This document shows positions 10,868-56,000 of a stretch of DNA of 64,000 nucleotides, piece by piece. The DNA comes from Marsupella aquatica. Taxonomy: Eukaryota; Plantae; Marchantiophyta. How positions within the stretch are numbered: the stretch's first letter is position 1; every line of letters begins with the position of its first letter. Made by a program: the position numbers and the translations under genes. The notes below the pieces were generated by a model. The model ran no database searches, had not been told where the DNA came from, and saw only the letters and a list, made by a program, of their open reading frames with translations. The stretch covers positions 6,209,239-6,273,238 of the forward strand of contig OZ316893.1 in NCBI GenBank assembly GCA_973895155.1, given 5' to 3'.

Positions 10868-13028
10868 CCTCCAGTGAGAGAGAAGGCTGTGGGCTTGCCC
10901 ATTTACCAGGTCCGACACATCCAACCATATTTCTTGACCCAATTGACCTTGCGGATGAAGACTGGAGGTGCCAGTCCACTTGCAGCTCCATTTGTCCTCT
11001 TGGTGGATCCAAAGGAGTGTGCTACTAGGCAAGACTTTGATTTTTCAAGGAAAGCTGATTACCATTATTATGTGATTGGGGGCAACCATTCAGCCTGTGC
11101 CAAAGCAGACCTTGCTCTTCAGTTCCCTAACAACAAGGCATTTCGGAGAGTGCAATCTTGGATATTTGCGGGATTGAGTGTGCAAGAGGCAAGAAACCTG
11201 GCGTGGAGTCACAATATTGATTCTGAATTTCGACAACAGATGACGACAATCCAGAGAGTAAATTATATTCACATGAGATTTGTTGAGAATGGATTGTTGT
11301 CCAACCAGGATTTCAAGAAAGAGTGTGCTACTGAAATCAATCTCAAGGATTGGGGTGTACGAAAGGATGCTGAGGTTCTTAATGCCAATGATAACCTATT
11401 TCAGTTGGCATTCCGACAAGATCCTGTGTGGTCATTTGTGAGGCAGATTTGTGACAAGTGGGAGATGTGTGAGATCAAAGGTCAAAAAGGAGACAAGGGC
11501 AAGAAGAAAGTCTCTAAGTCTGGAGATGCCAAATTGCCTTATGAGGACATGAAATTAACAGAGTGGAGACACATGCAGGCCTTGAAAGATCCTGATATGA
11601 TTTGCCCAGTGTTACAGAGAGTTCTTACTAAAGAACTCTCTTTACAGGAAATGGGTCACGAATTTACTCGACACAAATTTCAGATGCAGGTGCAGAAGGC
11701 CTTCCTCACGTGTCTACACGAGGAGAGTTGGTCAGGTTGTAAAACCAAGTACCCTGAGCATTGCACAGACAATGTGCTTAAGAATTTTGTACCTGTTTTC
11801 CAGACATGGGTAAGATTCTGTCACCTTTCTTCGAATGATTGTTTGAATTCATTTAATATTTGGAATTCTAGAGTTCCTTTTTGTAGAAAGATACCACCTC
11901 CCGGAAAAAGAAGGGAGATGAGGAAGGCAAAGATCTCAAGTCATTCCCGGACAAATTCAATGCGCATATTGTGCAAGACCAAAATTGGCTATCCATGAAG
12001 ACTTCTAGTCGGCAAACCCAAGAGGGGGAACTTCATCCAAATTCGTTTGAGCATCCAGAGTTTGGTGATGTGCACTATGATATTTTTACTCATGATGCTC
12101 AGCGATTACATGAGGTGGTTCCGGGTCGGGCTTACACATTAGCTTTAGTGGATATTCCCTACGGGTTTGCATTGCCTGGATGTCTTCATGAAGACACTAT
12201 TGGATGGGGAACTGAGGAGATCACAAAAATGGTCCAATCGTTCAAGGTGGCTACTACTGCAAAGTTGTGGCGTATTATCATTCACCACAGCCTTGACCAA
12301 TATGAGGCCATCAAGACCGTTTTGAAAGCGGAGTGTAATGGAGGGTTCCAGAATTGTGTGTGGTAAGAAATATTTGTTTTTGAAAAAAACAACTATTAGT
12401 TATTCATGATTTCATGAACCATGTTTCTCAGTTTAAATAACTCCTTGACTTTTTGTGACTTTTTAGGGTTAAGGATAATGTGAAGAATGCTGGTGGACCA
12501 AGATTGAACAACAACTTTGAGTGCTTTACAATTGGCTTTCACAACCAGGATGGTAAACGGTCATTGGAGCACTTCAATTTTGACACAAATGAATCAAGGA
12601 ACAATGTGGTTGTATGCGCAGCTGTGACTAAGAAGCTGAAACACAACGGGGATAACAAGGCAGTGAATGTTTATCAGAAACCATGTGCATTGTTAGATTG
12701 GGAAGTGAGTCATTTTAGTCAGGTTGGAGACTGGGTTTTGGATATTTGTTCAGGATCAAGGACTGGGACAACCTCCTCCTTGGCCATGGGGAGACATTGC
12801 GTTGCCATTGAGATTGACGAGCGACAGAGCAGTGTGTTGAAAGGGAGGATTCTTAACCTTGCAGATAACATTGAAGAGGAAGACGGACAGGGGGAGATGG
12901 ATGAGGAGAGTGAGGAAGACATTCCTCAGGCCGGAGAGGATAGCGTGGTTGACGATGCCACAATTGTTCCAGAATTGACGACAGGGACTTCCGGAACCGA
13001 GGAAGGGGAAGCGGTCCCTTTGGATTAG
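10868..13028 (+). CDS. ParB-like domain + beta-class N4C/N6A DNA methyltransferase, paralog A (5' end cut by LTR insertion); exons 10868-11809, 11887-12362, 12467-13028
   Basis: APFVLLVDP..YYVIGGNHS..LAWSHNID (ParB/Srx-like); LALVDIPYG (motif IV), YQKP (X), DWVLDICSGSRTG (I), AIEID; two GTAAG..TAG introns join the three ORFs in frame. Confidence 0.8.
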
Positions 13029-35830: not shown

Positions 35831-37410
35831 CTATATCTCAGAGTTGATGCCACCGGGAAGTTGCTCTTCAAAGGATGGGGGTGCAAAAATTGGGCTCAAT
35901 CTCAAGTTCATTTTTTTGTAATCTGATTTTGCCATTATCTTTGGAGCTTCGTCTAGTGATTCTATCATTCCAACCTTTGGTCCATTTCTCCATATGAAAT
36001 GAGTTGCACGACGGACTGTTTTCATATATCCAGTCCTGCCTATCTCAGATCCAGAATTTTGTGAAAATGATAATACTATAGGGCTTCCTGTAGAAGCACT
36101 TGTAAAAACCAATTTACTCCCTGATGAGCAATATAGAGGAGACAGGGGAGGAGTTGAAGCACCTGCCTTCTCTTCTTCATTTGCTGCGGTCTCAAGCACT
36201 TGGCGATCATCCTCCTTTGCAAGCGCAATGTCTGGAATTTCTTCCAATTCTACTCCGCCAATATTGCCTAGATCACCTACGGTTGCCTTCCATTGTGCGT
36301 CCAATGTGGACGATGTAAGATCTGGGTCCGATTGGTGCATCCAATTCTCTACACCGGCAAAGGGATTTTTTGGTGGGTCGCCCTCAGGTCGACGCACAAC
36401 ATCTGTCAACCCCACACCAAAGTAGGGAGTACCTACCACTTGTGTTCCACGTTCATCCAAATTTCTGGTGACCCTATCGTCTGTGTCGTGACCCGATTCT
36501 CCTTCCTCAATCTCATCTTCACCCTGGTCTACGCCTTCTTTGGCGCCAACACGCTCAGAAACCACATCGCTGGATCTGCCAAATTTGGAACCGCCCATCC
36601 CGTGACTCATTATGGAAGGACCCTTCTCGCATAGAACCCTTCCATATGCTTGAGTGAAATCATATTCATCCTCAGTGTTTGAATACGCAAAGCATTCTTT
36701 GAAACACAACAAGGACACCTTCATAACCTGTCCTCCCAAGAAAAAGTCAAGGATAGTTTCCCCTTCAGCCAAAAAAAATTCAATAATACTCTGCAGCATA
36801 CATTTTGGCTTAGCGTGAATATTCACAAAGCCACCTCTACTTCCCACCATCTCAAACATGGGAGCCTTTCGCAAGAAATCTCCAATGTGAAATGTCACAA
36901 TTGACTCGGCCTCTGTCTCCTTACTTGTCTTACTCTTATTCTTATCTTGCTTCTCCATCTTGTCTCCCACTTGGAAATCAGGGTCTATTGCCGAATTGTA
37001 AGAAAATTGGCAATTAAATCCAGGCCTAAACACTTGCTTCCAATCAAATTTCTCCTCAGTGGTGATTCCTGCAAAGATTATCTCCTCCATACCACAATTG
37101 AAAAGTAAGCCCTCTAGAACTGGTGTATCACTCCGTCGATAGCTCCCGTAATCAACGTGGATGTCCATTCCCTTTTCATGGTGCAATTTCCTAAGGGCAC
37201 TCAAAATGTTTGTAGCAAGTGGCCCCGGATGCACAGTCATGACAACAACAATTGTTGGATTTCTTGGAAGATCCACAATGTATTGCAGTTATGGAATAAT
37301 TTCAGAATCAGTCCAAAACACGATTTCGGACCGACCGAGAAGTGTGTCGGAGTTCTCGTTTAGCCCGATCCCATTTTTTTCTAAGGCAATGCAATGATCG
37401 ATAAAACTGG
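35831..37410 (-). pseudogene. Degenerate DNA methyltransferase-like protein with acidic C-terminal extension
   Basis: NIHAKPKCMLQSIIEFFLAEGETILDFFLGG resembles motifs X and I; same frame upstream (past a TAA) gives FIDHC where DIPY is expected. Confidence 0.55.
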
Positions 37411-38727
37411 CAAAAACTCTCCGAAACGCCACTTTCCTCCATTGCATCGCCGCGGGAATGCAGGGAGCGATACGTGCATCGGGTTTTACATTCCGTCAGT
37501 GAAAAAGTCCGAACTGCGAGTAACTTGGTCCAAACCGCGTAATCCAGGAATGACCACGCACTAACCCAGGTAAAAGGGGAAATTAACCATGGTTTAGAGC
37601 GTCTCCTATATAAAGAGGAGCGGGCTGCCCATAAAACGTTTGCTTTCGCCAGAGCAAATATCTCCTGACTGAGAGCGAATACCAAACTCCCATCAAGTCT
37701 TACATTCATCCCAAGCGATTCGACTCTTTCTACCGAAAACCCGATAAATTTATCAGAACAACCATTCCTGTTCAAGTTCTCCATGTAAGACTAACTAGTC
37801 ATTTAGTGTAAAATGTCCAGATCCGAGCGGACTGCGATAAATTTATCGCATTTTGCATTCCTCTGTTGCAATCATTTGATCCAGTGTGTTTAGAGAGGTG
37901 TTGCCTTCATTCCGATAAATTTATCGGAGTCTCCATTCCTTTCATGGAAAGAGGAGTAATTGAGAATCCGATAAATTTATCGGAGTTGTCATTTTTGTGA
38001 AAGATTGAATTCAGGGCTTAGGTGTTTGAGGAAGTCATATTTTCAATTCGAATGCGGAGTGCGATAAACTTATCGCATCCTCCTGTGAGAATCATTTTCC
38101 TTTGTTTTGTTTGGAGACTCATCTTCATCTCTGATGTCGCAGTGTTGCCGGGTTTAGGAGGCACAACGGAAGGTCGATTGCACTCCGTGGACAATAGGTA
38201 TTGTGACAAATGGCTGTCTTCCTTGAAAATCGTGTCAAACGTGCACGCCGGTTGTACAAGAGACTCGTGCGACTCAAAGTTCTCCCCATCGGTATAGGAG
38301 CATTGTGGATGGGTGGTACTGATCCTGGAGATAGGCAGAATCCTCTCCGCATTGAATTCTGCGGAATGAATGATGCAGGAGTTCCAATTCGTTCGAGGTT
38401 GATGTTAACGGCGTGTTTACATTCTTTGGAGTTTTCTTGTAACTATTGTTGTCGTCGTCTTGATAACAAGTACCACAAACAGGCTCACTTCTGTTGTAAG
38501 ATTTGGAACGAAGACCCTTGGGTGAACCTTTCACGATGAGTATTTCAACCTTTTCATTGAGGCGCATCTTGGAAGGACATATTTAAATAAACAAGTCCTA
38601 CCCTTGCGCAGCGAATATAATACGTCACGAGTCCTAATCGTTAAACTGTCGTGCAGGGTTGGTACTGTGTTTGGTTACACCTGGTGATTGAAGGTATTTT
38701 TATTGGTGGTTTTGGTAGCTCTGCTTC

Positions 38728-39276
38728 ATGGCTGCATCGGAGAATCTAATCGTTGCAAAGATGGGATCCGTTTTAGCCCACGAGCGTAGGAAATATATTC
38801 GAGGAAAAGTGCCCGGTGTGGAATGCGGAAGTTTGTTGAATGGACTTCCCGATGAACTCGTTGAATCTCACATTTGGCCCCTCCTAGCCTTGTCTTGCAC
38901 ACAAGATGAACACCTTGGCCTTGACCTAAAACTTCTACCAGAAGAACGACTGACTCGAATGAGAACAATCATTTGTCTTGGAGCCACCTCGAAGAAATGG
39001 AACCATCTTGTTGTTGGTACACAATTTTGGGCGCTATTGAAATATGCAGTCCGTGAGATCAATGACATAAACAAAATGCTCGCAAGCATTCCTAATGCCG
39101 TCCTTCTCTCAAACCTACATATTGCTAGGGTCTTCCGAGAGGAAACTCATTTCCTCCCTCCCATAGATATGCTTGGGTGCTTCTCGTATGACCGATTAGA
39201 TGCGTTTCTTAGAGTTTGGGTGAATCTTGGAGAAAGCGGGAAGCGGACAATTCTTGCATGGTTTGGACGAGTCTGA
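38728..39276 (+). CDS. F-box-like protein
   Basis: LLNGLPDELVESHIWPLL...CLGATSKKWNHLV; ATG-started 182-aa ORF. Confidence 0.55.
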   Translation: MAASENLIVAKMGSVLAHERRKYIRGKVPGVECGSLLNGLPDELVESHIWPLLALSCTQDEHLGLDLKLLPEERLTRMRTIICLGATSKKWNHLVVGTQFWALLKYAVREINDINKMLASIPNAVLLSNLHIARVFREETHFLPPIDMLGCFSYDRLDAFLRVWVNLGESGKRTILAWFGRV

Positions 39277-39568
39277 GTGGATGAGGCATTGCAGTGAACA
39301 TCCGATAAATTTATCGCACTCCTCATTCCTCTAGTCGATTTTGGGTGCTTGTAAAGAAACACTTTGAATATAATTGACTCTGCCTCCCCTGACTTCGGGT
39401 TGTGTGGTCCAGAGTGTATTTTTTTGCGCCTCTTCGGACGATTAGCTGACAAGTGCATTGGCTTCACAGCCCGTTATACAAGGTACTGTAAAGTTGGATG
39501 AAACTTGTAGAATTGTAATTAGTATGTTCTCCAAAATTTATTCCTGATTTCTATTCGGTGATCAGGCC

Positions 39569-40282
39569 ATGCTCGAGCGACGCATTTTTGTACCCTTCCC
39601 GGATCCTCCAGAATGGGGGAATGGAGCCATGCTGGACCAGCTAAGGAGGCTGGATGAGTCACTAATTTTAAAGATATGCAGGTTGGTAGTAAAACCGTTT
39701 TACCATAACGCATTTCACTTCTACGTAGATCAGGTAGGGGGAGAAATTTATATTCGGTGGGATAGATATGTTGGATTTTCTAGAAGAGTTATCCTACTCT
39801 TTCTGAAAACCGGTGCAGTAAGACGTTTTATACTCCACTGCTGTCATGTTGTGAAGGGCAATCCTGCTTATGAGCCAGAATTCTATGCCGACAACAGACG
39901 TAGAGCATTCGATGAGATTCAGGATGTGATTGACGAGCTGGACAATCCTCTTGCCACCGAGTTTTTTATTGACACTGGTGGGAAACTATATTCATACAAG
40001 ATTCGTCAACTCCCCCCCCAGCCGGTCTGTGGGCTCTTTAACTTGATCTATGTAAGTTGCCTGTGGACGAACGTCCTTGCCAATGGTGAGATCTGTCCAT
40101 GCTGCACAAATGCTTGTTGTGACATTCCGTCACGCCGGTATTCAGTAGCAGTAGTGAATCCTGAGACTGGTGAAGTTGATTTCCATTGGCTGTGGGCTTA
40201 TGATCATCGCGTCACTCATATTCCCCAATGGCCCAAGAAGCGGATCGAACGCTTCGCTCTGGCGAGGTTCAACTATGATTAG
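39569..40282 (+). CDS. Hypothetical 237-aa protein with Cys cluster
   Basis: ATG-started ORF with globular-type composition; CPCCTNACC. Confidence 0.5.
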   Translation: MLERRIFVPFPDPPEWGNGAMLDQLRRLDESLILKICRLVVKPFYHNAFHFYVDQVGGEIYIRWDRYVGFSRRVILLFLKTGAVRRFILHCCHVVKGNPAYEPEFYADNRRRAFDEIQDVIDELDNPLATEFFIDTGGKLYSYKIRQLPPQPVCGLFNLIYVSCLWTNVLANGEICPCCTNACCDIPSRRYSVAVVNPETGEVDFHWLWAYDHRVTHIPQWPKKRIERFALARFNYD

Positions 40283-40502
40283 GGTTTAGGTTTAGGGGTT
40301 AAGGTTTTGGATTTAGGGTTCCGTAGCTGATTCTTCGACCTGTACACTCGGCCGTCAATTTAAAGAAGGCTCACTTTTGCGATAATTTTATCGGTCTCTT
40401 TGTCCTTGTGTGATGAGATGTCGTGTCCACATGTGCTGTGAGATTGGCGGTGATAATTTTATCGCTCTTTGCATTGGAATTTGTTTATTTGCAGACTTTT
40501 CC

Positions 40503-43500
40503 ATGGCTGCTAGTGGAAAGAGTGGATCTGCTGAGGCAGAGAGTCTCATGACAAGCCTCACCAATGCAATTTGGACAAGTGAAGACATTTGTGAAGAGAT
40601 CAAGTGTATCAAGAAGTCATGGTACTTCCGTGATGCCAGATTACAGTCCACGGGTTTCGAAGACTGTGTTACCCCAATCCTTTGGGTCCAGTTGCAAAAA
40701 TCGGCGAAGGTTAATGTTTCGTATGGCCCTGTCATTGCTTTTGCCGTCGTCGAGTTCATGGTTGGCCACGGGGACGGAAAAGTGTTGACAGAGGGCCTTA
40801 GTTTCTTGACAATGTGTGGGCGCAAGGGTTTCACATCTCTCATTGTTACTCTCGATAACTTTGATGAGAAATCGATGGACAGTTATCCACAAGATCCCCT
40901 TGTTGCCGATGTTCGGGCAGCAAGAGAGATGAATGTTATGGGTTCGGCTTGGATCGGCCAGTATGTGCAAGATTGTGATGCCATCATGCTTCCAAGGGTG
41001 AACGCAGAGTACAAGAGACTTGTGGGTGAAGAGTTCAAACCTGTCCGCAAAATTGTTTTCAAGAAACCAGGTTCAAGTGGAAGCGGTGGTTCTAATGCCG
41101 ATAAAATATCGGGGTGGAAAGAACCATTGCAATCCTCTACACATATTGACGTGGACGAACCTACAACTTCTGGTCGGGTTTCGGGAAGTGGAAAAGGGAA
41201 AGGGAGAGGTAGCGGCAGGGGAGATGCCGCGGGAACCTCTGACGGTGGGAAGAAGAGCCAGGAAACTAGCGGTAGTGGGAGAGGCCGGGGCAACCATCGA
41301 GGACCATCCGTTAAACCAAGCGAAAGTAAAGGATCCGAGGGATCCGGGCCATCTGGTTCTGGACTTAGCACAAAGAGGAAGAGGACTGGCTGGACTGAGA
41401 CGGTGGCTGCAGAAGTAGATAGAGCTCCATCAATTCCATCAGTTCCAATCGCGGTTCCTACGGCGCCATTGGTAAGTACTACGTCGTTGTATTGTTTAAC
41501 AAACACGAAATCCGATAAAAATCTCGCTGTTTATTTCCTGAATTGCGGATTGTGGAGTTATGTTGAACAAATGCGAACTCCGATAAAAATCTCGCAGTTT
41601 CTTTCCTTAATTGAATTTGCAATGCTTTTGTAGGCTGATCAGGAGGAGGAGACGGCTCTTTCGATGTATGAGACGGACGCGATCAAGGCAGAGCTCAGTC
41701 TTCTGATGCAACGAAGGGTGCAAAGGACAACTGTGCTTCTGCATGTCGACAATCTCATATTTGATGAGGAGGGGGATTTGACAACTTTGATTAGACCAGT
41801 GGATAGATTGCATGTGGAAAATATCAAGATACTTCTCATGAAAAACCCCACCAACTTCAGTGCCCCGTTCGTGCTGTGTGTGGATCCGAAGGATTGTCCC
41901 ACAACCGCAGATTGGGACATCCTGAAGTCAAGGGTATGGAAGTATAGAATTATTGGAGGGAATCATGGTGCTCAGGCAAAGTCCGAGTTGTTTAAAATGT
42001 ACGGGAAGCAAATATATGGTGAGCTGGAAGCTTGGGTTTACGCTGGGCTTACGAGATCCGAGGTCCGAAAGTTAGGCTTCCAGCATAACTATGACCAGGA
42101 GTATCGGAAGAACATGACTAAATTTGACCAAGTTCGCGCTTGTCACAATATTTTCCTTGAAATGGGTGTGGGCTCAACTAAAGATGTCCGCGAAGCATGT
42201 TGTCAAGAATGCATGATGGAGTACACGCCAGGAGTTCGTGACTCCATGGCCAAACATGATCCGGCTTTCCAAATTGCTTTCTGAACAGGTGAAATTTGGG
42301 ATCTTCAGGAGCAGATTTTCCAGATGTGGGAGAAAGGTATTGTCTTAGGACAACCCAAAAAAATTGTGGCAACGACGAACGCAAAGGGAAAGGTGAAACC
42401 TTTGACGGTAAGGGAGATTAAAATGAATAAACTTGCTGGTGACCTCAACTTAAATTCATTTCGAGGTCTCCAAGGACTGTCAAATAAGGAGCATGTCAAG
42501 CGTCTCTTGAATAGGGTTATCGGGAAGGTGATCACTTTGGATCAAATGCACAAGGAAGGTGAGAAGTTGAAAAAGCTTGCCAAGGTGAAGAAACTATTTT
42601 TGCAGATATCTGGTCAGCCAGATTGGGCAACATGCAGAGAAATGTTTCCCAACGAAACAGATGTCTCGGTCCTTGGCATATGGGCGGAGAAATTGAGTGA
42701 CGCGGTAAGCATTCCTCTCACAGCATGCTCTATCGCGAGATTTTTATCGGCTTTAGCATTCCTTTGTTGGTTTCTAAGCGATTGCATCTATCAGCTAGCG
42801 TGCTCCATCGCGAGATTTTTATCGGCTTTAGCATTCCTTTGTTGGTTTCTAAGCGATTCCATTTATTGGCTAGCGTGCTCCATCGCGAGATTTTTATCGG
42901 CCTTAGCATTCATCTCACGCTATTCTAACTGTAGATGTGTCTGACATTCTTATAGCTGAAGATTAATTCAAAAAGGAAAAGCAAAGTGGTTCCGGCTGTC
43001 ACTTATAATTCTGCGGGGGAGGTTATTGTTCCCTCAGCTGAAATCCCTTATGTGTTTAAGAATTTTGTGCTTGCTGCAATCGATAAGTACAATCGGCTGA
43101 GGTCCTTAGGCAAGGGCACAGCATAAGCGTTTGAACAAACATGGAAAAATACAAACGGGGATTCTTTTCCCTACTATCTCCATGTTGGTGATGTTCGAAT
43201 TTTGGATTCTTTTGTTCAGCCAAGGGCTTACACCCTTGCGGTTGCGGATATTCCGTATGGTTTTAATGTTCCTGGTTCGGAGTTTGATGAAGTGGCCTTC
43301 ACAGAAAAGGACATTTTAGACATGTTGACAAGTTTCTCAAAGATGACGACCGCTAAGCAGTGGAGGTTTGTTGTGATCCATTCACTACAACAAACGCATA
43401 TGGTGATGTCTGCACTGGAGAGTGTATGCAACTGTGGGGTCAAGGCTGGAATCTGGGAGAAGACTAACATTCATGAGCGTCCCGCTGGAGCTCGATTGGC

Positions 43501-44068
43501 GTGGGGTTTTGAGAACTGGTCGATAGGTTTCTATAGCGAGGAAGGCATTCGGAACATGAACATGTACAATTTCCAACCGGATGAGTCTCGCGTCAATATC
43601 ATCAAGGTTCCATGTGTAACCAAGAAGTCCGTTGATCCGTTGGGATTTGTTGTGAACCCATATCAGAAGCCGGTTGGTTTAGGGGCTTGGTTTGTTTCCC
43701 ATTTCTCTAAGAAAGAGGATTGGGTTATTGATCTTTGTTGTGGAACCGGATCGACATTAGCTGCTACGCTCCTCAATTCTCACCAGGGTTGTGCTGTTGA
43801 TAAGAGTTCTACGCAGATTGGTTTTGTAAAATCCCGGATCATGATTCTGGAGTCAAACTGGAATTTATATGAAGAATCCCAGATTGAAGGGCACGGCGTT
43901 GAAGGTCATGAGATTCAACCACCAATTGCAGGCCAATTGGGTGTACTCGGGACATCGACTTACGTAGTTGAGGTCGTGAAGGAGACCGAAGAGGAACAAG
44001 AAGAAACTGAGGAAGAGCCTCCCAGAACACCAAATGAGGATGATCTCAACGACATGTTATTAGATTAG
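40503..44068 (+). pseudogene. ParB-like domain + beta-class N4C/N6A DNA methyltransferase, paralog B; exons 40503-41471, 41634-42704, 42956-44068; nonsense codons at 42282 and 43124
   Basis: LIRPVD..APFVLCVDP..YRIIGGNHG..LGFQHNYD; LAVADIPYG, PYQKP, DWVIDLCCGTGST, AVDKS; both GTAAG..TAG introns are phase 0 and restore the frame. Confidence 0.82.
42720..42912. repeat. 75-bp tandem repeat in intron 2 of paralog B
   Basis: CGAGATTTTTATCGG at 42736, 42811 and 42886. Confidence 0.9.
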
Positions 44069-44325
44069 TTGCGTGTGCTCGTTAGGATAATGTCAATCAC
44101 CAATGAAGTTGTCGATAAATTTATCAACTTCTGTATTCCATGAGGAAGAACCTTTGTCACATTTATTAATGCGATAAATTTATCGGACTTTGCATATATC
44201 GGACTGTCGCGGTGTTCCTGCTGGGGGAATGGAGTTGTCGATAATCTTATCGGACAGCATTGTATTCTCTAATTGGTTTGTCATTGTAATTATTTAAAAA
44301 AAAAGATATCATTATAGCTTCGGAG

Positions 44326-44990
44326 CCCTGGGCCCCCAGCCTTTGTAAACTAAAGAGGTATACGTGCGTACACCCCCCTCCCTAGTACCCCTTATTATTT
44401 TTGGAAGCCTATAAAAATTTCTCTTGTTATTCTTAAAAACTTAATTTTGGAGAATAAATCTGCCCCTTTGAGATATTATAATTTCACATTTTACACCATT
44501 TATGAAAGCCTTGAAAAGTTATAAATTTATCATGTGCAAACGGTTCTAAAACTGATGGGAGTGTTTTAGAAGGGTTTTGGGTACATACATTTTTGTGTTC
44601 GTGACCCTTTAACCCCAAACTTCAACTTTGGGGCATTTTTGAACCACATGGCAGGGTAGTCAGGGTTCAAAAGCTCCAAAGTCCTAAACTACTCTGAATC
44701 ATAGATGTTGCAAGCATAATTATATGTCATATACACATGTTCCAATAAAGGGTGACCACAAGGACCAATCCTATTGTGACGCGTGTCACATCCATATTAC
44801 ATCACCTCTTGAAGCATATTAACTTGGGTGACATTTATATAAGCCTATATTAGTTAGAAAAGGTTCTTTGAATAAAACCATCCCTTGATATTTCTAAGCC
44901 AATTATAAAAATTAATCTCAAATCAGATTTTTTGCACCCTTCATCCGTTCGCACGTCCAGCCCATTATTAATAATGTTGGGGGCCCAGGG
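44326..44990. mobile_element. 665-bp MITE with 8-bp TSD (hAT-like by TSD length only)
   Basis: TIR CCCTGGGCCCCCAGC / GTTGGGGGCCCAGGG; TSD CTTCGGAG; inverted second copy at 54025-54689. Confidence 0.9.
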
Positions 44991-45069
44991 CTTCGGAGTA
45001 CATAGTCCCAGAACGATAACCACTGTACATATTCATGGGAACGATAACCATTATAACTTAAACCTGAAA

Positions 45070-48000
45070 CTAGCTTCGACTATCAACGACTACAGTCTCC
45101 ATTGCATTTTGAATGATTCGTCTTGTTTGTATAGGGAGAGTACTATTTGCCAATAACGCAAAGTTATACGCATAAATGGCAGTTTCTGATAGGGACAATT
45201 CATCCTCCAGTACTTTGCTAGACGAAGCCTCTTTCTCCGGATAATATCTGCCTTCAATTGCAGACTCTTCCTCCGAATCCATTGCATACCAAGTGATTTT
45301 AATCCGCTCCGGGATGTCGTTAATTCTTGTGAGAATCTCAGTCACTTTTGCCATCCAGAATGGTCTTCCCTTGGGATCCTGATGGGCTGCTACACATATC
45401 ATTGCAAATTTAGTATTCACCTCTAGATCCTTGAAGTCTCCAATTTCCATGACTTTTCTTCGACTTCCGGAATACATGACTGTCCTCACACCCGCTACTT
45501 TATCAACCAAGCTAGGTTCCATTGCTGCTTCCGTAGGATTACTCAAAAGTTCTCTCTGTACGTTTACCTTGGGCCAACTCCAATCAAAACTCCATTGTGC
45601 AGGTTTCAGGTGGTGCTGAATCACTTCTTTTTGTTTGTCAAAAAAACGACCCCACCATAGACGATCTGTGTCGTCAAAGTAATTGAATCCATCTTCAATT
45701 GCTCTTCGATATTTTTGAAGAGTTGACAAATAACTTTGAGCCGCCCGCTCATCTTGTTCCTCAGCATCATTCTCTTGCTCTTCATTGTCTCCTGTCGCTC
45801 CCGTGGCCGGCTTCAATGCCATTTGTGGTGCGACCCACATTCCAGATGATGGAATGTACCGAACAAAATCCACCGTCTCCCCCCAATCGATTGTCGTTGA
45901 AAGATGTTTGGCATGGAATACGGACCGAGCACTTCCATCTTCGAGTACTCTAGTAATCCGAAATTGTGTTTGAGCACTTATGCCGTGGAGAGTACGTAGA
46001 ACCTGACCATCCATATCCTTGTCATTTGCTTGATCCTTGTTTGACACAAATTTCTTGAAATCGGCAACCTCGTTGACGAAAAATATCTTTGCCGTAGGAT
46101 TGTAGGATTCCTCTATGATTGCTGAAAGAGTGTCCAACCGAAAAGCTTTCCGCTTGTTCAATTTTGAAGAAAACTTGCTAAACATTTGATCAATTTGATC
46201 ATGGGTGTGCCCCACCAATAGGAAACCAACCTTTATTTTCTGGAAAACACCTATCTCCACCAACATATTCAAATATGCCATAAGATATTTATTCTTGTTT
46301 TCTCGAGCTGTGTTATCAAGCTGGAGGTAAAGCACTGGAGGGAGCAGACCTTCCCAGGTATTCAGAATATGCTGGATAACGTGGATGGTCAGGTTGCTAT
46401 CATTGTGAATATTTGGATAGTTCAAAAAAACATTTGAACTTAATTGTTTGTTGAAGATCAAACAACCCACTACGTGTACGGGGATGAAATACTTTTCATC
46501 CATATTCTTCGGACACCGAATGAAATGAGGTAACTCTGTCTTCTTTTGATCCATTCCATCAATACAGATGCCCAAATATTTCTCCGGACTCTTGTAACAT
46601 TTGCTCCGGTGCTTTGCTAACTTCTCCCTCTCGACTGCTTGTGCCTTCCGATGCTCGTTTAGCAATGTTGAGAATTTTCCTACAACAATAAAAAATTTTA
46701 GGACAAAACATGATAACCGCAATGTTGAACCCTGACAGCGATAAATTTATCGGGTTCAGTATTCAAACACGAGACCGTAATGATAAACCCTGACAACGAT
46801 AAATTTATCGGGTTCAGTATTCAAACACAAGACCGTAATGAAAAACTGTGACAGCGATAAATTTATCAGGTTCAGTATTCAAACTGTTCAAACGATATAT
46901 TCACTCACATGGCCAAAGAAGAAGCACATGAATACTCAACCCGATAAAATTATCGGGAGTAACACACAGGTTTAGAAATTTACTCTTTTCTGCTTCGAGT
47001 GTTGCCTTGTCACGGAGTGCTTTGAATTCAGTACACGGGGCGCAGGTGGAGAAACGGCTCCTTTTGGGGATGCGCACACGAGGAAACTCCTTGTTCCAAA
47101 TGCGAACAAACCACGAATATGTCATGCCTTGTTCTTGGCGCATTAGAGTTTCGGACTGGAAGGCATCAAAAACTTCTGTTTTTGTCCAATTGTCAGGTAA
47201 ATGAAAGATATCCTTGTTGGGGAGACTCTCGACATTTGTGGAAAAAAAATCATCCAGCCATTGGACGAGACCAAGATGTGCGGGTGATTTTTCTCGACAA
47301 ACTGTACCGATCTGTATCCGAGAAAACATGTTCTGCGAGATTTTTTGGAGACGATTATTTCCCAGTGAAAATAATTTCTTAAAACCACTTCGACAAAAGG
47401 ATCTACCGCTAACTGAGTAACCACTTGCACCAGCATGCCCACCCTTCACACATCCTCTTAGAAGGACGTTCTTCTCTGGGTAGGATAGCCCATAGTAATA
47501 AGTGCGTTGTTTCGTCACGGCTAGCAGACCCAAATTCCGCAGACAGTAATTATCACAACACGAATACTTATGAATTTCTCTCATTTTGTTTCTATTCAAT
47601 TTGTCATTTATCACATTATCTTTCCTAGTAATTCGGTCCCTATCTTTTTTACTAGGCTCATTTGACTTCTCTACAACCTGAAATCCGTTCATAACATTGG
47701 CATTTTCGGGTCCTTCAGGTGCCTCGCGAATAGATGCATCACTCTCTGTTGAGCTACCATCCTCTATAGATCTCCTTGACGCATTTAGAGGGGCACTGAA
47801 TAGACGACTATAGCTATTCTCTTCGACAGCTCCTTCTAAACATTCAGACACAACTTGTGCTATTATATCGGATTCTCTATCTCCTTCCTCATCTTCGTCC
47901 TCCGATGCACTCGACTCATCTGAAAACACAATTGGACTCCGTGGCTCTCTATACATAACCCGAACGCCACTAAGACCTCTCCTCGATACTTGGAGCCTGG

Positions 48001-48661
48001 AACCAATGACAGTCCGCCCTTGAGAACTTGGAGATTCTGGATTCGCACGTGCAGTCCCAATGACTCCGCGAGCTGCTGGAAAATTGAGCACTTGTTCACC
48101 ACGATTCCCACGGACCATTCGAGAAAGGGCTGAGTCTGGACTTCGCAGTCCGATTCCCTCGCTTGCTCGCACATCCAGTCCAGGCAATGCAAAGACCGAT
48201 CGCCGTATCGGTCTTTGTATTTCTGTGTCCCGATCCTCACCCGGAGACTGAAAGATCCGTCGTTGAACTTGTGTTGAATGTGACGACTTGAATGCCGATT
48301 GCGATAAGCGTATCGGTCGCCGGATACCCTCTCCATAACCCGGGATGGATGGCCTGAAGCGACGTCTCGGACCTAAACCTCGGATTGAAAGTTTCTCATT
48401 TCTTGGCGATGGAACGCTCAAGAGACGACGCTTCTCAGGTTTACTAGGCGACACATAGTAAGCACTGGGCTCAGGACCAGAACTTGCATCAGAATCTGAG
48501 TCAGAGATTTCGGGCACTATTTGCTGTGAGAGAGGTAGAGCTTTAAGTATGCGACTTGGCAAACAGCGAGCGACAAGATTAGGAGAGGAGTCAACTGAAC
48601 TGGAAGGTGAATCTGTGTCTGATTGAGACATGGCTATCCGAGACACTATGGGGCTTTGCAT
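45070..48661 (-). CDS. DUF7869-type (Sola-like) RNase H-fold transposase, ~1090 aa; exons 48661-46984 and 46679-45070
   Basis: CCDNYC, FSTCAPC; IDGMDQ, LQLDNTARENKN, FLLVGHTHDQIDQMFS; phase-1 GT..AG intron joins the two long ORFs with no stop; start could be 48631. Confidence 0.8.
46728..46885. repeat. 58-bp tandem repeat in the transposase intron
   Basis: Palindrome recurs at 46739, 46797 and 46855. Confidence 0.9.
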
Positions 48662-48919
48662 TCCTCCCACAATCAGGGAAAACGAAAGGCTCAACGGACA
48701 GAATGTTGCTCCAAGAACACAACTCCCAAAACTCTACTCTCGATAATGACGCCAAAAACTTATCGGTGGTGGCCCTTTTATAGTGTCTGTTGAGGGGTTG
48801 GCCCACGTGTCCACTTTTGATTGGCTGTCACCCTAAACGACAAAATAGCAGAAAAGGGTATATTTCTTGGATTTCCAATTTCATTCTCACACGTGCATCG
48901 TCTAGAAGAAAACAGGGCC

Positions 48920-49722: not shown

Positions 49723-50249
49723 AACAAGAAGCCTTAAGGGATGAGTCCAAAGCCTTATTTCTCTTTTCAAAATCTTCATGATATTAAAAAATGTATACCA
49801 AAAAACCACCAAAAAATGGTATGTATTTTCCAAACTAGACTCAAGAGAATTTTACCACCAAAATCTAAGCATATCTTATATGATATTCTCACAATTGTAT
49901 AAACCTTGAAATATGCACTTTATAAAAGTAATCAAAATCAAACTCATCGATCAGAGTTTAAGTCAAACTCAAAGTTTTACAAAATATAACCCAACTTAAG
50001 CCCAAGTGGTTTCAAATGCTACGAGTCCCTCTATTTATCTAGTCTAATCCAAAGGGACCGCTTCCCCTTCCTCGGTTCCGGAAGTCCCTGTCGTCAATTC
50101 TGGAACAATTGTGGCATCGTCAACCACACTATCCTCTCCGGCCTGAGGAATGTCTTCCTCACTCTCCTCATCCATCTCCCCCTGTCCGTCTTCCTCTTCA
50201 ATGTTATCTGCAAGGTTAAGAATCCTCCCTTTCAACACACTGCTCTGTC
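49723..50249 (-). repeat. Inverted duplicate of the 3' end of methyltransferase A (inversion breakpoint)
   Basis: Reverse complement of 12823-13349. Confidence 0.95.
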
Positions 50250-50799: not shown

Positions 50800-51050
50800 G
50801 CCGTATCTTTGAAAATTAAGAAAGGCCTACTATGTTCAACATTATATCACTGTCAACAATCCAAAGTGGTGATCATGCTGCCATCTATGCTCTTTTGGAG
50901 GTGAAGTGGGGAGATTGTCGTTGTATCCATAAGGAGTTTGGAACCATCTTGGATGTGACTCCTGAAGAGATTCCTTGGGACGGAAAGGAGGAGGTGCAGC
51001 ATTACCCACCACTAGAGATGTGGACCACGGATGAGATCGAGAAACTATAA
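50800..51050 (+). pseudogene. 3' continuation of the FCP1-like gene
   Basis: Joining at the TSD gives EILWPYL*KLRKAYYVQHYITVNNP, a plausible end of this domain. Confidence 0.65.
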
Positions 51051-53080: not shown

Positions 53081-56000
53081 CTAATGCCTGGCACGCTTGC
53101 CAGAGCCGCCCGAGTGGGAGCGGCTATCCTGTTGCCTTCTGAGTCTATCGGCATCCTGCTTGAGTAGCTGGACCTGGTCTAGCAGAGATTTGTTCTCTCG
53201 CTTTGCCGCGTCCGTCTCCTCCGCGGCTTCCTGGCATGCCTCCTCCAGTTGTTGGGCGTCGCTCGTCAGCTTATCCACCAATTGGGCCTGCTTCGTGGGT
53301 TCTCCTTGAAGCCGCACCACTTCCGCCTTTAGGGCATCAATCTTGGTCGTGTCCTGCTGGGCCCGAGCGTCGGCCTCCTCTACATCCTTTTGCCTGCTGA
53401 CGGCTTGCAATCAATCTGGGTCCGGAGTTGTGCGATCTCGGCGTTCTTTCCGAACCCGGCCTGCTCTGCTAAGGCTGCCCGGGCCCTAGCTTTGGTAACC
53501 TGATCCTCCGTGGCCGTTACCTGAGGTCGTAGTTGTTGGAGTTCAGACTCTAGGGCCACCACTTTGTCCTTCAGGTAGGCAGACTCAACCCGGTACCGCT
53601 CTATTCTCTGTGCAGTCTTAGCCTACGCATGACCTGCCTTCACGGCCGCAACCAACTCCTGGTTGAGAAGTAGGCCACCTTCCGTGCCATGTACTCCCCG
53701 ACATTCCATGCGATTTGTTGAGAGAAATCTCCCAACAACCCATTCAGAAACGTGCTCGGTGCAAAGAGTTCCGGATGGTCCAGACTATGCCCCTCCGGAT
53801 TTGGGCAAGGACAGACCCCAGCCCGTGCAGGAGTTGGAGTGGAGACATCCAGCCCTTGAGGTAAGTCGGTCAAGGGGGCTGGGTCCACTGAGGCTGGGCG
53901 GTTCTCTTGCACAACCGTGGGGGGTGGCAGGATCTCCTCGGCCACCGTAGTCTTGGGTTCGGGTTTGGCCTCTGCCGGTCCGGCTTCAATCGCGTTGACC
54001 TGGTTGATCGCATCCAAGCTCACGCCCTAGGCCCCCAGCATTATTAATAATGGGTTGGATGTGTGAACGGATGAAGGGTGCAAAAAATCTGATTTGAGAT
54101 TAATTTTTATAATTGGCTTAGAAATATCAAGGGATGGTTTTATTCAAAGAACCCTTTCTAACTAATATAGGCTTATATAAATGTCGCCCAAGTTAATATG
54201 CTTCAAGAGGTGATGTAATATGGATGTGACACGCGTCACAATAGGATTGGTCCTTGTGGCCACCCTTTATTGGAACATGTGTATATGACATATAATTATG
54301 CTTGCAACGTCTATGATTCAGAGTAGTTTAGGAATTTGGAGTTTTTTGAACCCTGACTACCTTGCCCTGTGGTTCAGAAATGCCCCAAAGTTGAAGTTTG
54401 GGGTTAAAGGGTCACGAACACAAAAATGTATGTACCCAAAACCCTTCCAAAACACTCCCGTCAGTTTTAGAACCGTTTGCACATGATGAATTTATAACTT
54501 TTAAGGCTTTCATAAATGGTGTAAAATGTGAAATTATAATATCTCAAAGGGGCAGATTTATTCTCCAAAATTAAGTTTTTAAGAATAACAAGAGAAATTT
54601 TTATAGGCTTCCAAAAATAATAAGGGGTACTAGGGAGGGGGGTGTACGCACGTATACCTCTTTAGTTTAAAAAGGCTGGGGGCCCAGGGGGTCGCGATAA
54701 CCGCGTCTACGGGGATGCTTGGCGGGGCGGCAGCGGCTGGGTGCGGGGCCAAGGTAGTAGGGCTTGTGGCTGCCAGACTTCAGGCCTCGGGCTGCGGTCG
54801 CCTCTCCTGAGCCGGGAATACCCACTTTGATGGGGTCAATTCGGGCTTGTTGATGCGGGGGAGGCTTTGGCGGTCAAAATGGGCATACCACTCAATGATG
54901 ATCTCGATGTGGCTCGCGAAGTACGCCTTTCCGCCAAGGTATAAAGTCTTCCGCTCCATCTCCTCGGGGAACTTCTTGACGAAGAAGGATTTCCACTTTC
55001 TAGGCCAATAGTTCTCCACCTGTATGACCTGGGCAGCGGATATTTTTCCCCGTGGTTCCATCATGTGGAGAGCATACCGCTGGAAGTCCAGGCGTTCTGC
55101 TACCTCCGAGATGAGGCATGTCCTCATCAAGAATCTGTTGTCCACTGCCCCCTTGGCCAGGAAGCTAGAGGACTGATATTTGGCTCCCTTGCCCCCAGAG
55201 CCCGCGACTCTACCCGGTTTATTCCTTCGGGTAGGCCGAAAATCATCTTCAGACGTGCCTCATTGAGACACATCACTCTCCCGTGCGCCCGGGTTTGCTG
55301 GCGGGCCTCGTCAAAGTTTTGAGTGAACTCCGTCATATCCTGCCCGTAGTACCTGCTTCCATTCCAAGGGAGAGAGGTGAGGTGCTCAAACCCTTGAGTC
55401 TTTAGGTAGCATGCATGCTTGCAATGGGGTGGAGGATGTTTTTGTGGACATTCTCCCCCATGCGATGCATGGTCAGTTTGGCCACCGCAACCGTGGCCAA
55501 AGGCAGCCCGGATACAGCTGTGGGTTCCTGTCTCTTCCTACCTCGGGACTGATTCCCGGGGTGACTTGAAGAGGGGGACATTTCCCCATCCTCCCTATAG
55601 GGTGGCGGTAGCGCTACCGCCGTGAATATTGGTGCGGGGGCTGCTACGGTCACCGTGTTATCCCCTTGGGCTTGTTGGAGGGGTGCTGGGTTGCTTGGCG
55701 TATGCTGATTTGCACCCTGCGGCCGCCGGTTGAGAGTAGGGTGAGCCTCCTTGTCTTTGGAGCTAATGTTCACCGCATTCATGTACCACGGATTGCACTC
55801 TGAGAGGGGGTGCGACCGGCGGTGGAGATTGGCTTGGCTGAGGCCGTGGCGGTGTTGGCGCAAATACCAATGAGTTGGCGCCGGTTGTAGCTGGAGGAGG
55901 CGCCATTAGATTTAGGAAGTCAAGTGATGTTAAGGTAGGAGTCTCGCTTGTTTGGGCCGGGCCGAACTGACAGTCTATCATGGAGGCTTGAACCCGGGCA

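Follow-up and report, generated by a model that had tools for sequence, protein, structure and literature searches.

The 64,000-nucleotide (nt) stretch of Marsupella aquatica DNA analyzed here (contig OZ316893.1, positions 6,209,239 to 6,273,238; herein the window) contains a DNA transposon amid long terminal repeat (LTR) retroelements. This putative element, of the DUF7869 (Sola-like) type, occupies positions 37318..48901 with tentative ends and carries a transposase gene, a gene joining a ParB-like region to a DNA methyltransferase (herein ParB-MTase), and many copies of a short palindrome, all of whose sites lie inside it. An initial annotation had proposed that the palindrome is a parS-like loading site for the ParB-MTase. 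The left end (∼37318) is set where contigs from two runs cease matching, at 37317, and the right end (∼48901) where four contigs from a single run diverge; a search between these candidate ends found no terminal inverted repeat (TIR), and no target-site duplication was proven. The family is multicopy: thousands of contigs at 80 to 99% identity span the stretch in three runs, contig depth over the element not being equal to copy number. None of the eight runs listed is from RNA. An internally deleted form, in which 38089 is joined to 48754, appears in two runs and retains the left site cluster and the promoter end of the transposase gene. The label "Sola-like" follows the element layout described in passages of PMC12477816.

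The transposase, on the minus strand, is intact (1085 amino acids [aa]) and matches DUF7869 with an E value of 1.4e-49 in exon 2 (45070..46679), which a 304-nt intron (46680..46983), the only one, separates from exon 1 (46984..48631). The ParB-MTase gene lies tail to tail with it on the plus strand and encodes 1050 aa in three exons: exon 1 (40503..41471) specifies a conserved N-terminal domain (aa 1 through 184) and then a low-complexity linker, exon 2 (41634..42704) a predicted ParB N-terminal domain with a helical DNA-binding region, and exon 3 (42956..44068) an N6_N4 methyltransferase with the motifs DIPY and DLCCGTG. The window copy has nonsense codons at 42282 (exon 2) and 43124 (exon 3); other copies have C at 42282. 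Upstream on the plus strand are two intact accessory open reading frames (ORFs; 38719..39276 and 39548..40282, the latter with a Cys-rich C terminus), both flanked by sites and without a family match, and a TATA-like sequence (37607..37614, plus strand) that may serve as the promoter of these genes. Named homologs are found in Chara, Riccia, Adiantum, and Ceratopteris; in Riccia the locus tags R1sor_010795 (DUF7869) and R1sor_010796 (ParB-MTase) are adjacent.

A palindromic core with a phased outer word

The 14-mer CGATAAATTTATCG has 15 matches at two or fewer mismatches in the 64 kb, seven of them exact and all within 37742 through 46955; shuffled controls average 0.20 matches with a maximum of 4. 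At three or fewer mismatches there are 27 matches, 23 in 37742 through 48765 and four, each with three mismatches, scattered outside, and scoring the 12 outer core positions gives 22 sites in 37600 through 48900. CGATAA, the half site, has 41 occurrences in the element (11.6 kb, 3.5 per kb) against 13 in the remaining 52.4 kb (0.25 per kb). Enrichment was assessed over the window and eight related loci described below. The initial annotation had counted seven exact 14-mers and three perfect 18-bp palindromes starting at 37833, 37911, and 37967, and our count agrees; its estimate of ∼20 copies also holds, with 20 genuine sites in 37742..46955 and a 21st (44519) that is a CG-less chance match in a miniature inverted-repeat transposable element (MITE). 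The span it gave was too short, the array extending from 37399 to 48765.

Only one of the 22 sites is coding, though ∼70% of the element is coding sequence (p 2e-10 with approximate exon bounds). The earlier statement that all copies lie between genes or in introns is right for almost all of them and fails for two degenerate sites (48197 and 48302) in exon 1 of the transposase. Sites form clusters every 1.1 to 1.3 kb, mostly intronic, and every base of the element is at most 1250 bp from a site. Amplification by tandem repeats had also been proposed. The arrays are real: one of 75 bp (2.5 copies, 42722 through 42911) and one of 58 bp (2.9 copies, 46716 through 46884), both within GT-AG introns. 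As outer flanks are common to just three pairs among 24 sites, most copies are dispersed and not tandem-amplified.

At the left end of the array a half site with its outer word (37399..37412, minus strand) is followed by a 38-bp palindromic frame (37456..37493) in which the degenerate core CGATAC-GT-GCATCG (37468) has outer words on both sides. The left cluster then comprises a site with one mismatch and CATTC (37742..37767), where G in other copies restores the palindrome; three perfect 18-bp palindromes, two with CATTC (37833..37860 and 37911..37938) and one with CATTT (37967..37994), all on the plus strand; and a spacer-variant site with its outer word at the left (38050..38075, minus strand). 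An exact intergenic site with CATTC follows at 39303..39328 (plus strand), and two sites (40380 and 40451; 40380..40475, plus strand) lie 5′ of the ParB-MTase start codon. Intron 1 of that gene (41472..41633) holds two variant sites (41513 and 41581), and the array in intron 2 (42705..42955) carries the three-mismatch variant CGAGATTTTTATCG at 42736, 42811, and 42886, each with CATTC. Three sites (44113, 44172, and 44239; 44101..44252) lie between the convergent genes, the transposase intron contains the 58-bp array (46739, 46797, and 46855) and a site at 46942, and a degenerate site (48752..48782, minus strand) lies beside the transposase's TATA-like box, a putative promoter.

The full site is longer than 14 bp and consists of the 14-bp core, 7 nt, and then YATTC. 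Of the 44 core arms in the window, 19 have YATT(C) at offset 7, counted outward, and 0 to 2 have it at any other offset; once tandem copies are merged, the count at offset 7 is 14 of 34. All 18 window matches to the composite pattern CGA-N8-TCG-N7-YATT lie inside the element (37457 through 48315); 0.12 are expected by chance. At 17 of 22 sites the word is on one side only (10.8 expected, p 0.007). Contigs of other copies match the unit 37833 through 37868 alone, with differing flanks. Four mismatches at the ends of cores in the window copy are CG to CA or TG, consistent with decay of host 5-methylcytosine (5mC) after death of the copy. Within five cores in 37725 through 38100, a per-base check in two deep runs found no change at a share of at least 20% except the one that restores the palindrome; this conservation is given little weight, since the variants listed lie mostly within a self-inverted stretch, where their placement may be wrong.

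The opposite strand of the outer word reads GAATR, and the beta-class enzymes M.RsrI and M1.MboII target GAATTC and GAAGA (passages of PMC7544214), a likeness that we treat as a lead only. According to the same passages, beta-class enzymes work as dimers on one, often asymmetric, site, which fits the one-sided outer word.

Family-specific sites in related loci

Eight metagenome loci (L001 through L008) encode relatives of the ParB-MTase. A blind search for repeated near-palindromes recovered a site with a 2-nt spacer (6+2+6) in six of the eight: five exceed every Markov control, and L005 is marginal. Three loci that are 80 to 85% identical share a CGAGAC core, where the window has CGATAA: CGAGAC..GTCTCG in L001 (18 sites), the same core in L003 (8 sites), and CGAGAC..GTATCG in L005 (3 sites). 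L002 has CGATGT..GGATCG with CGATGT/CGATCC halves (20 sites), and a more distant clade has TCATGA..TCATGA (L006, 5 sites) or TCATGC..GCATGA (L007, 3 sites). The core thus differs between families, and the outer word and its spacing are constant across the window, L001 (22 of 36 arms at offset 7), L002 (19 of 40), L003 (13 of 16), and L005 (4 of 6). In L002 the word is always beside the same half of an asymmetric core. The TCATGA clade has no YATT at offset 7 (0 of 18 arms).

The window itself holds a truncated ParB-MTase of this last clade (10868..13028, plus strand), 29% identical to the main copy in the ParB exon and 68 to 71% identical to L006 and L007, with the palindrome TCATGA-TT-TCATGA in the matching intron (12404..12417). 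A 99.4% copy of 12823 through 13349, the 3′ end of this second-family gene, lies at 49723 through 50249 on the minus strand. In L006 a low-complexity ORF (2 through 703, minus strand) is head to head with the ParB gene and unmatched to the fetched DUF7869 transposases.

Distance between motifs tracks distance between ParB sequences (Spearman rho 0.73, permutation p 0.0095 over eight related taxa), a descriptive result in which kin share motifs, so that the p overstates independence. The covariation proposed as a check in the initial annotation is seen, the core following the ParB tree, with the reservation that ParB and transposase are co-inherited. Only one of 57 sites falls within the matched coding stretches of six related loci. 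Synonymous divergence between families is saturated (pS 0.75 to 0.85), and noncoding DNA of L001 and L003 matches only in short alignments over sites, mostly of 38 to 42 nt; these two observations indicate that selection has maintained the sites and that each family has had them exchanged as a set. The sites are thus real and specific to the element, and selection acts on them. New here are the site sequences, the covariation series, and the phased outer word: none was returned by literature searches, among whose results only the Ectocarpus and Bostrychia papers were relevant to the site or its covariation, and whose scope did not extend to the Bostrychia supplements (Fig. 13, Table 6) or Iyer 2011.

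The ParB-methyltransferase

A model of exon 2 (predicted local distance difference test [pLDDT] 87.9) gave 11 Foldseek matches at E ≤ 0.001, and all those shown are Noc or ParB (E 2.7e-5 to 3.5e-4; Noc 7nfu, 2.7e-5; ParB 6sdk, 5.2e-5). The modeled ParB N-terminal fold superposes on PadC (Z 9.3, root-mean-square deviation [rmsd] 2.7, 93 residues aligned), and the second half of the model resembles the DNA-binding domains of KorB, ParB, and SopB (Z 4.0 to 5.3; KorB 1r71, Z 5.3, rmsd 3.7, 108 aligned; ParB 6s6h, Z 4.2), with whole-chain KorB at Z 8.0. HTH_ParB is matched in two of 58 family members (best E 3e-4). With moderate confidence, the models place a helical DNA-binding domain after the ParB N-terminal domain. 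Searching the ParB profile or the MTase exon against sequences of solved structures gave nothing significant, and searches of viral contigs and prokaryotic genomes gave no relatives.

Motifs for cytidine triphosphate (CTP) were counted in an alignment of 58 of the 150 listed homologs, among those covering each column. GxxRxxA occurs in 0 of 47 and Arg at the key column in 0 of 48, in a register inferred from the motif and not from superposition; the window copy reads GGNHGAQA and the family GGNH[GS]A. The likely equivalent of the second motif, EN(I/L)QRE, is HNxDxE, which retains Asn in 42 of 46, again in an inferred register. Bacterial ParB requires GxxRxxA for CTP use and spreading (passages of PMC11229316), and a KorB mutant in the Arg does not bind CTP and acts only from nearby operators, where it still represses (passages of PMC11790492).

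A homodimer was predicted for the homolog P0003 (score 0.55, best control 0.00; contact agreement of at least 74% between runs; pLDDT at least 72). Among solved microbial structures, 21 of 30 homodimers and 0 of 23 monomers pass the mark applied, and among eukaryotic ones 17 of 29 and 0 of 30; the pass of P0003 may reflect ParB dimers already solved. Its predicted interface is formed by the N-terminal domains and includes the GGNHG and HNxD stretches. Another homolog, P0002 (Chara braunii CBR_g41648), has a gene model with two tandem ParB-MTase units whose motif IV reads DFPY and DLPY.

Exon 3 encodes a beta-order methyltransferase (PF01555) whose DIPY precedes the S-adenosylmethionine (SAM)-binding motif DLCCGTG, and its best family matches are phage DNA methyltransferases. 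The PF01555 match is above the cutoff in L001, L002, L003, and at 12459 through 13028 of the window and below it in the main window copy. The methyltransferase part is as strongly conserved as the ParB part (dN 0.13 to 0.33). The domain encoded by exon 1 (40503 through 41054) is conserved in L001, L002, and L005 only; it has no homologs among proteins of 107 to 343 aa and no Foldseek match at E ≤ 0.001. Its low-confidence model (pLDDT 60) bears a weak likeness to a SANTA domain (the best match, Z 5.7) and to DNMT1 RFTS (Z 3.4), and the domain is possibly a chromatin reader.

We favor, at a rough probability of 0.45, a reading in which a ParB-MTase dimer docks on the two-part sites and acts locally, probably methylating adenine in GAATR/YATTC and likely flagging copies of its own family to stay active. 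The ParB half would anchor the dimer on the palindromic core, and the remainder of the protein would reach the outer word, roughly one turn off. There the beta-class domain, working as a dimer, would methylate, with adenine suggested by analogy to the motif-IV Asp, and the spacing of site clusters would allow short-range action along the element. That no base is more than 1250 bp from a site is as expected for such action and as seen for VANC motifs (passages of PMC5735166). The parts of this reading differ in strength. It is probable that the ParB-MTase is the binder and, given binding, there is a good chance that its action is local to the site, without CTP-driven sliding; methylation of the outer word is tentative, somewhat short of even odds, and an anti-silencing or activating purpose has about an even chance. 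The wider proposal, that land-plant DNA transposons use a CTP-free ParB dimer on a family-specific palindrome, with a fused beta-class methyltransferase writing N6-methyladenine on GAATR at a 7-nt offset as a private bacterial-type epigenetic mark tiled every kilobase, is rather unlikely.

Several observations weigh against the favored reading. Motif IV is not (D/N/S)PP(Y/F/W): the window and five loci have D-I/V-P-Y, which retains D and Y, DPPY is found in three of the 12 fetched homologs having motif IV, and no paper among the literature matches listed names the DIPY motif. The TCATGA clade has DIPY without the phased YATT; a domain specific to one clade, in place of the methyltransferase, may therefore be what reads the outer word. 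In the window TCATGA-TT-TCATGA occurs only once; L004 (1.1 kb, mostly exon) and the distant L008 have no repeated site, and the window copy of the ParB-MTase gene holds two stops. The predicted N-terminal-domain dimer resembles the closed ParB clamp, an arrangement compatible with sliding. Besides the motif sharing among kin, the transposases of L002 and L003 are of the same type as the window's; with ParB and transposase co-inherited, covariation cannot say which encoded protein binds.

The same motif IV is the starting point for a reading in which the ParB-MTase binds without methylating, as a KorB- or VANC-like regulator: the protein would make a further contact at the outer word, through its clade-specific N-terminal domain or through the methyltransferase fold as a reader, and the sites would control promoters or recruit chromatin factors. 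DIPY in place of DPPY fits this, as do the absence of the outer word from the clade without the exon-1 domain, the sites adjoining both TATA-like boxes, and the repression from nearby operators by the CTP-blind KorB mutant (passages of PMC11790492). We consider it unlikely, at around one chance in five, as the catalytic D and Y and the SAM motif are retained across saturated divergence and the exon-1 domain yielded no DNA-binding fold. The initial annotation had the ParB load at the palindrome, close on CTP, slide, and methylate the whole element. The fold, the predicted dimer through the GGNHG and HNxD stretches, and the Asn of the second CTP motif speak for it; the Arg of GxxRxxA, in the motif-inferred register, is absent from all 47 homologs, clusters every 1.1 to 1.3 kb are a redundancy that a slider hardly needs, and the outer word at a fixed distance points to action at the site, which leaves this mechanism improbable. 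Its broader claim of a cis-acting site for a dimer encoded by the element, most likely the ParB-MTase, is supported by the modeled ParB/Noc/KorB fold, the change of motif with ParB family, and the predicted dimer of a homolog.

Were the transposase the binder, for synapsis or autoregulation, its intact and co-inherited gene, the degenerate sites close to both putative ends (37399, 37468, and 48752), and the left cluster retained on internal deletion (38089 to 48754) would be accounted for. Transposases normally bind termini, and most sites here are internal, in ParB-MTase introns of the window and of related loci. Red-algal inverted-repeat arrays adjoin a ParB gene on a different transposase type, Plavaka (passages of 10.1101/2025.02.11.637652). 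This alternative, already raised in the initial annotation, is weakened to about one chance in 10. Equally improbable is the remainder, comprising another accessory ORF, a host GATA-type factor, an RNA hairpin, or by-products of tandem duplication. In favor are the two upstream ORFs without functional annotation, the GATAA within the half site, the ability of the 18-mer to form an RNA fold (-7.1 kcal/mol), and the presence of some copies in tandem arrays; against these, the accessory ORFs are unmatched in the eight loci, which contain little upstream DNA, and most sites have unrelated flanks. The host GATA factor was rejected since GATAA is not retained in sister families, and the RNA hairpin since the intronic variant barely folds (-0.5) and the L002 core is asymmetric.

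Neighboring features and comparison with known systems

A 666-bp MITE without the site is inserted between the convergent genes (44326..44991) and flanked by the 8-bp duplication CTTCGGAG; a second copy, 97% alike, lies at 54024 through 54689, and the TIR is CCCTGGGCCCCC. Left of the element, 34824 through 37288 (minus strand) encodes a NIF-type phosphatase ORF (Pfam E 2.5e-13) and an ORF with a faint methyltransferase-like match and contains no palindromes; its depth in run X4 is five times that of the rest, and it may be an element of its own, with the transposon inserted into it near 37317. Contigs of three runs connect 34855 and 50800 on opposite strands, and the phosphatase module seems to resume at 50800 and beyond, displaced through rearrangement between LTR-element copies. 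Right of the element, 48920 through 49720 is rich in AATGAC/GTCATT, with 43-bp and 83-bp tandem repeats, a motif family distinct from the palindrome; these could be subterminal repeats of the palindrome-bearing element or of a neighbor. The observed/expected CpG ratio (element, 0.83; copia, 0.49; gypsy, 0.98; second family, 0.41) does not discriminate.

Two 2025 papers proposed that ParB-domain cargo binds and modifies its own transposon, and the parts available to us name no site. Exact sites for several families, a specificity series (CGATAA, CGAGAC, CGATGT, and TCATGA), and a candidate target base at a fixed offset make that proposal directly testable. If correct, there would be two independent routes to VANDAL-type self-recognition, and plants would have a natural adenine methyltransferase that is anchored.

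In Ectocarpus, Sola1-1_Ec32 is likewise a giant DDE transposon (Sola1) with an opposite-strand ParB-like and N4C/N6A methyltransferase gene (1104 aa; 1050 aa here) for which self-binding and self-modification were proposed (PMC12477816). It resides in a brown alga, the passages seen contain no binding motif, covariation, or CTP-motif analysis, and neither its AACCG termini nor its 282-bp TIR was found in the window element. Plavaka PAG3 of Bostrychia also has ParB-domain cargo, adjacent tandem inverted-repeat arrays, proposed self-binding, and a comparison with VANDAL, whereas its ParB is fused to a 2-oxoglutarate (2OG) oxygenase, its methylase is on a separate gene, its transposase is EnSpm-type, and the text seen describes no outer word (10.1101/2025.02.11.637652). 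The methyltransferase shares PF01555 and the motif order IV, target recognition domain, I with beta-class CcrM, M.RsrI, and M.EcoP15I (passages of PMC7544214) and with Marchantia DN4MT1 and bdelloid N4CMT and is unlike them in its DIPY, its transposon-borne state, and its ParB anchor. The last two, as far as the sources seen describe them, are encoded by their hosts, carry SPPY, and make N4-methylcytosine. ParB-HTH is fused to Dam-type enzymes in chlorophytes (PMC4738411).

With ParB-parS, Noc-NBS (Noc-binding site), and KorB-OB the window system shares the fold, the (here predicted) dimer, a palindrome of similar length, and a switch of specificity between paralogs (passages of PMC7383237, PMC11229316, and PMC11790492). 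It differs in the absence of GxxRxxA and of any ParA seen, in the fused methyltransferase and phased outer word, and in the site sequence: contrary to the initial description as parS-like, CGATAA-AT-TTATCG is not parS, the parS and NBS consensus sequences being TGTTTCAC-GTGAAACA and TATTTCCC-GGGAAATA. The analogy to VANDAL that had been drawn for accumulation in noncoding, tandem-repeat DNA holds for the motif distribution. In Arabidopsis VANDAL/VANC, family-specific motifs are amassed in introns, intergenic DNA, and tandem repeats, and motif and protein co-diverge; the VANC motifs are nonpalindromic and of 8 to 9 nt, and VANC was shown to cause 5mC loss (passages of PMC5735166), whereas the candidate agent here is a ParB-fold methyltransferase. 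VANDAL elements combine a Mutator-type transposase with VANC, and the window element a DUF7869 transposase with ParB-MTase cargo. The window system would work like VANDAL/VANC, is built like ParB/KorB, and is a member of neither as defined.

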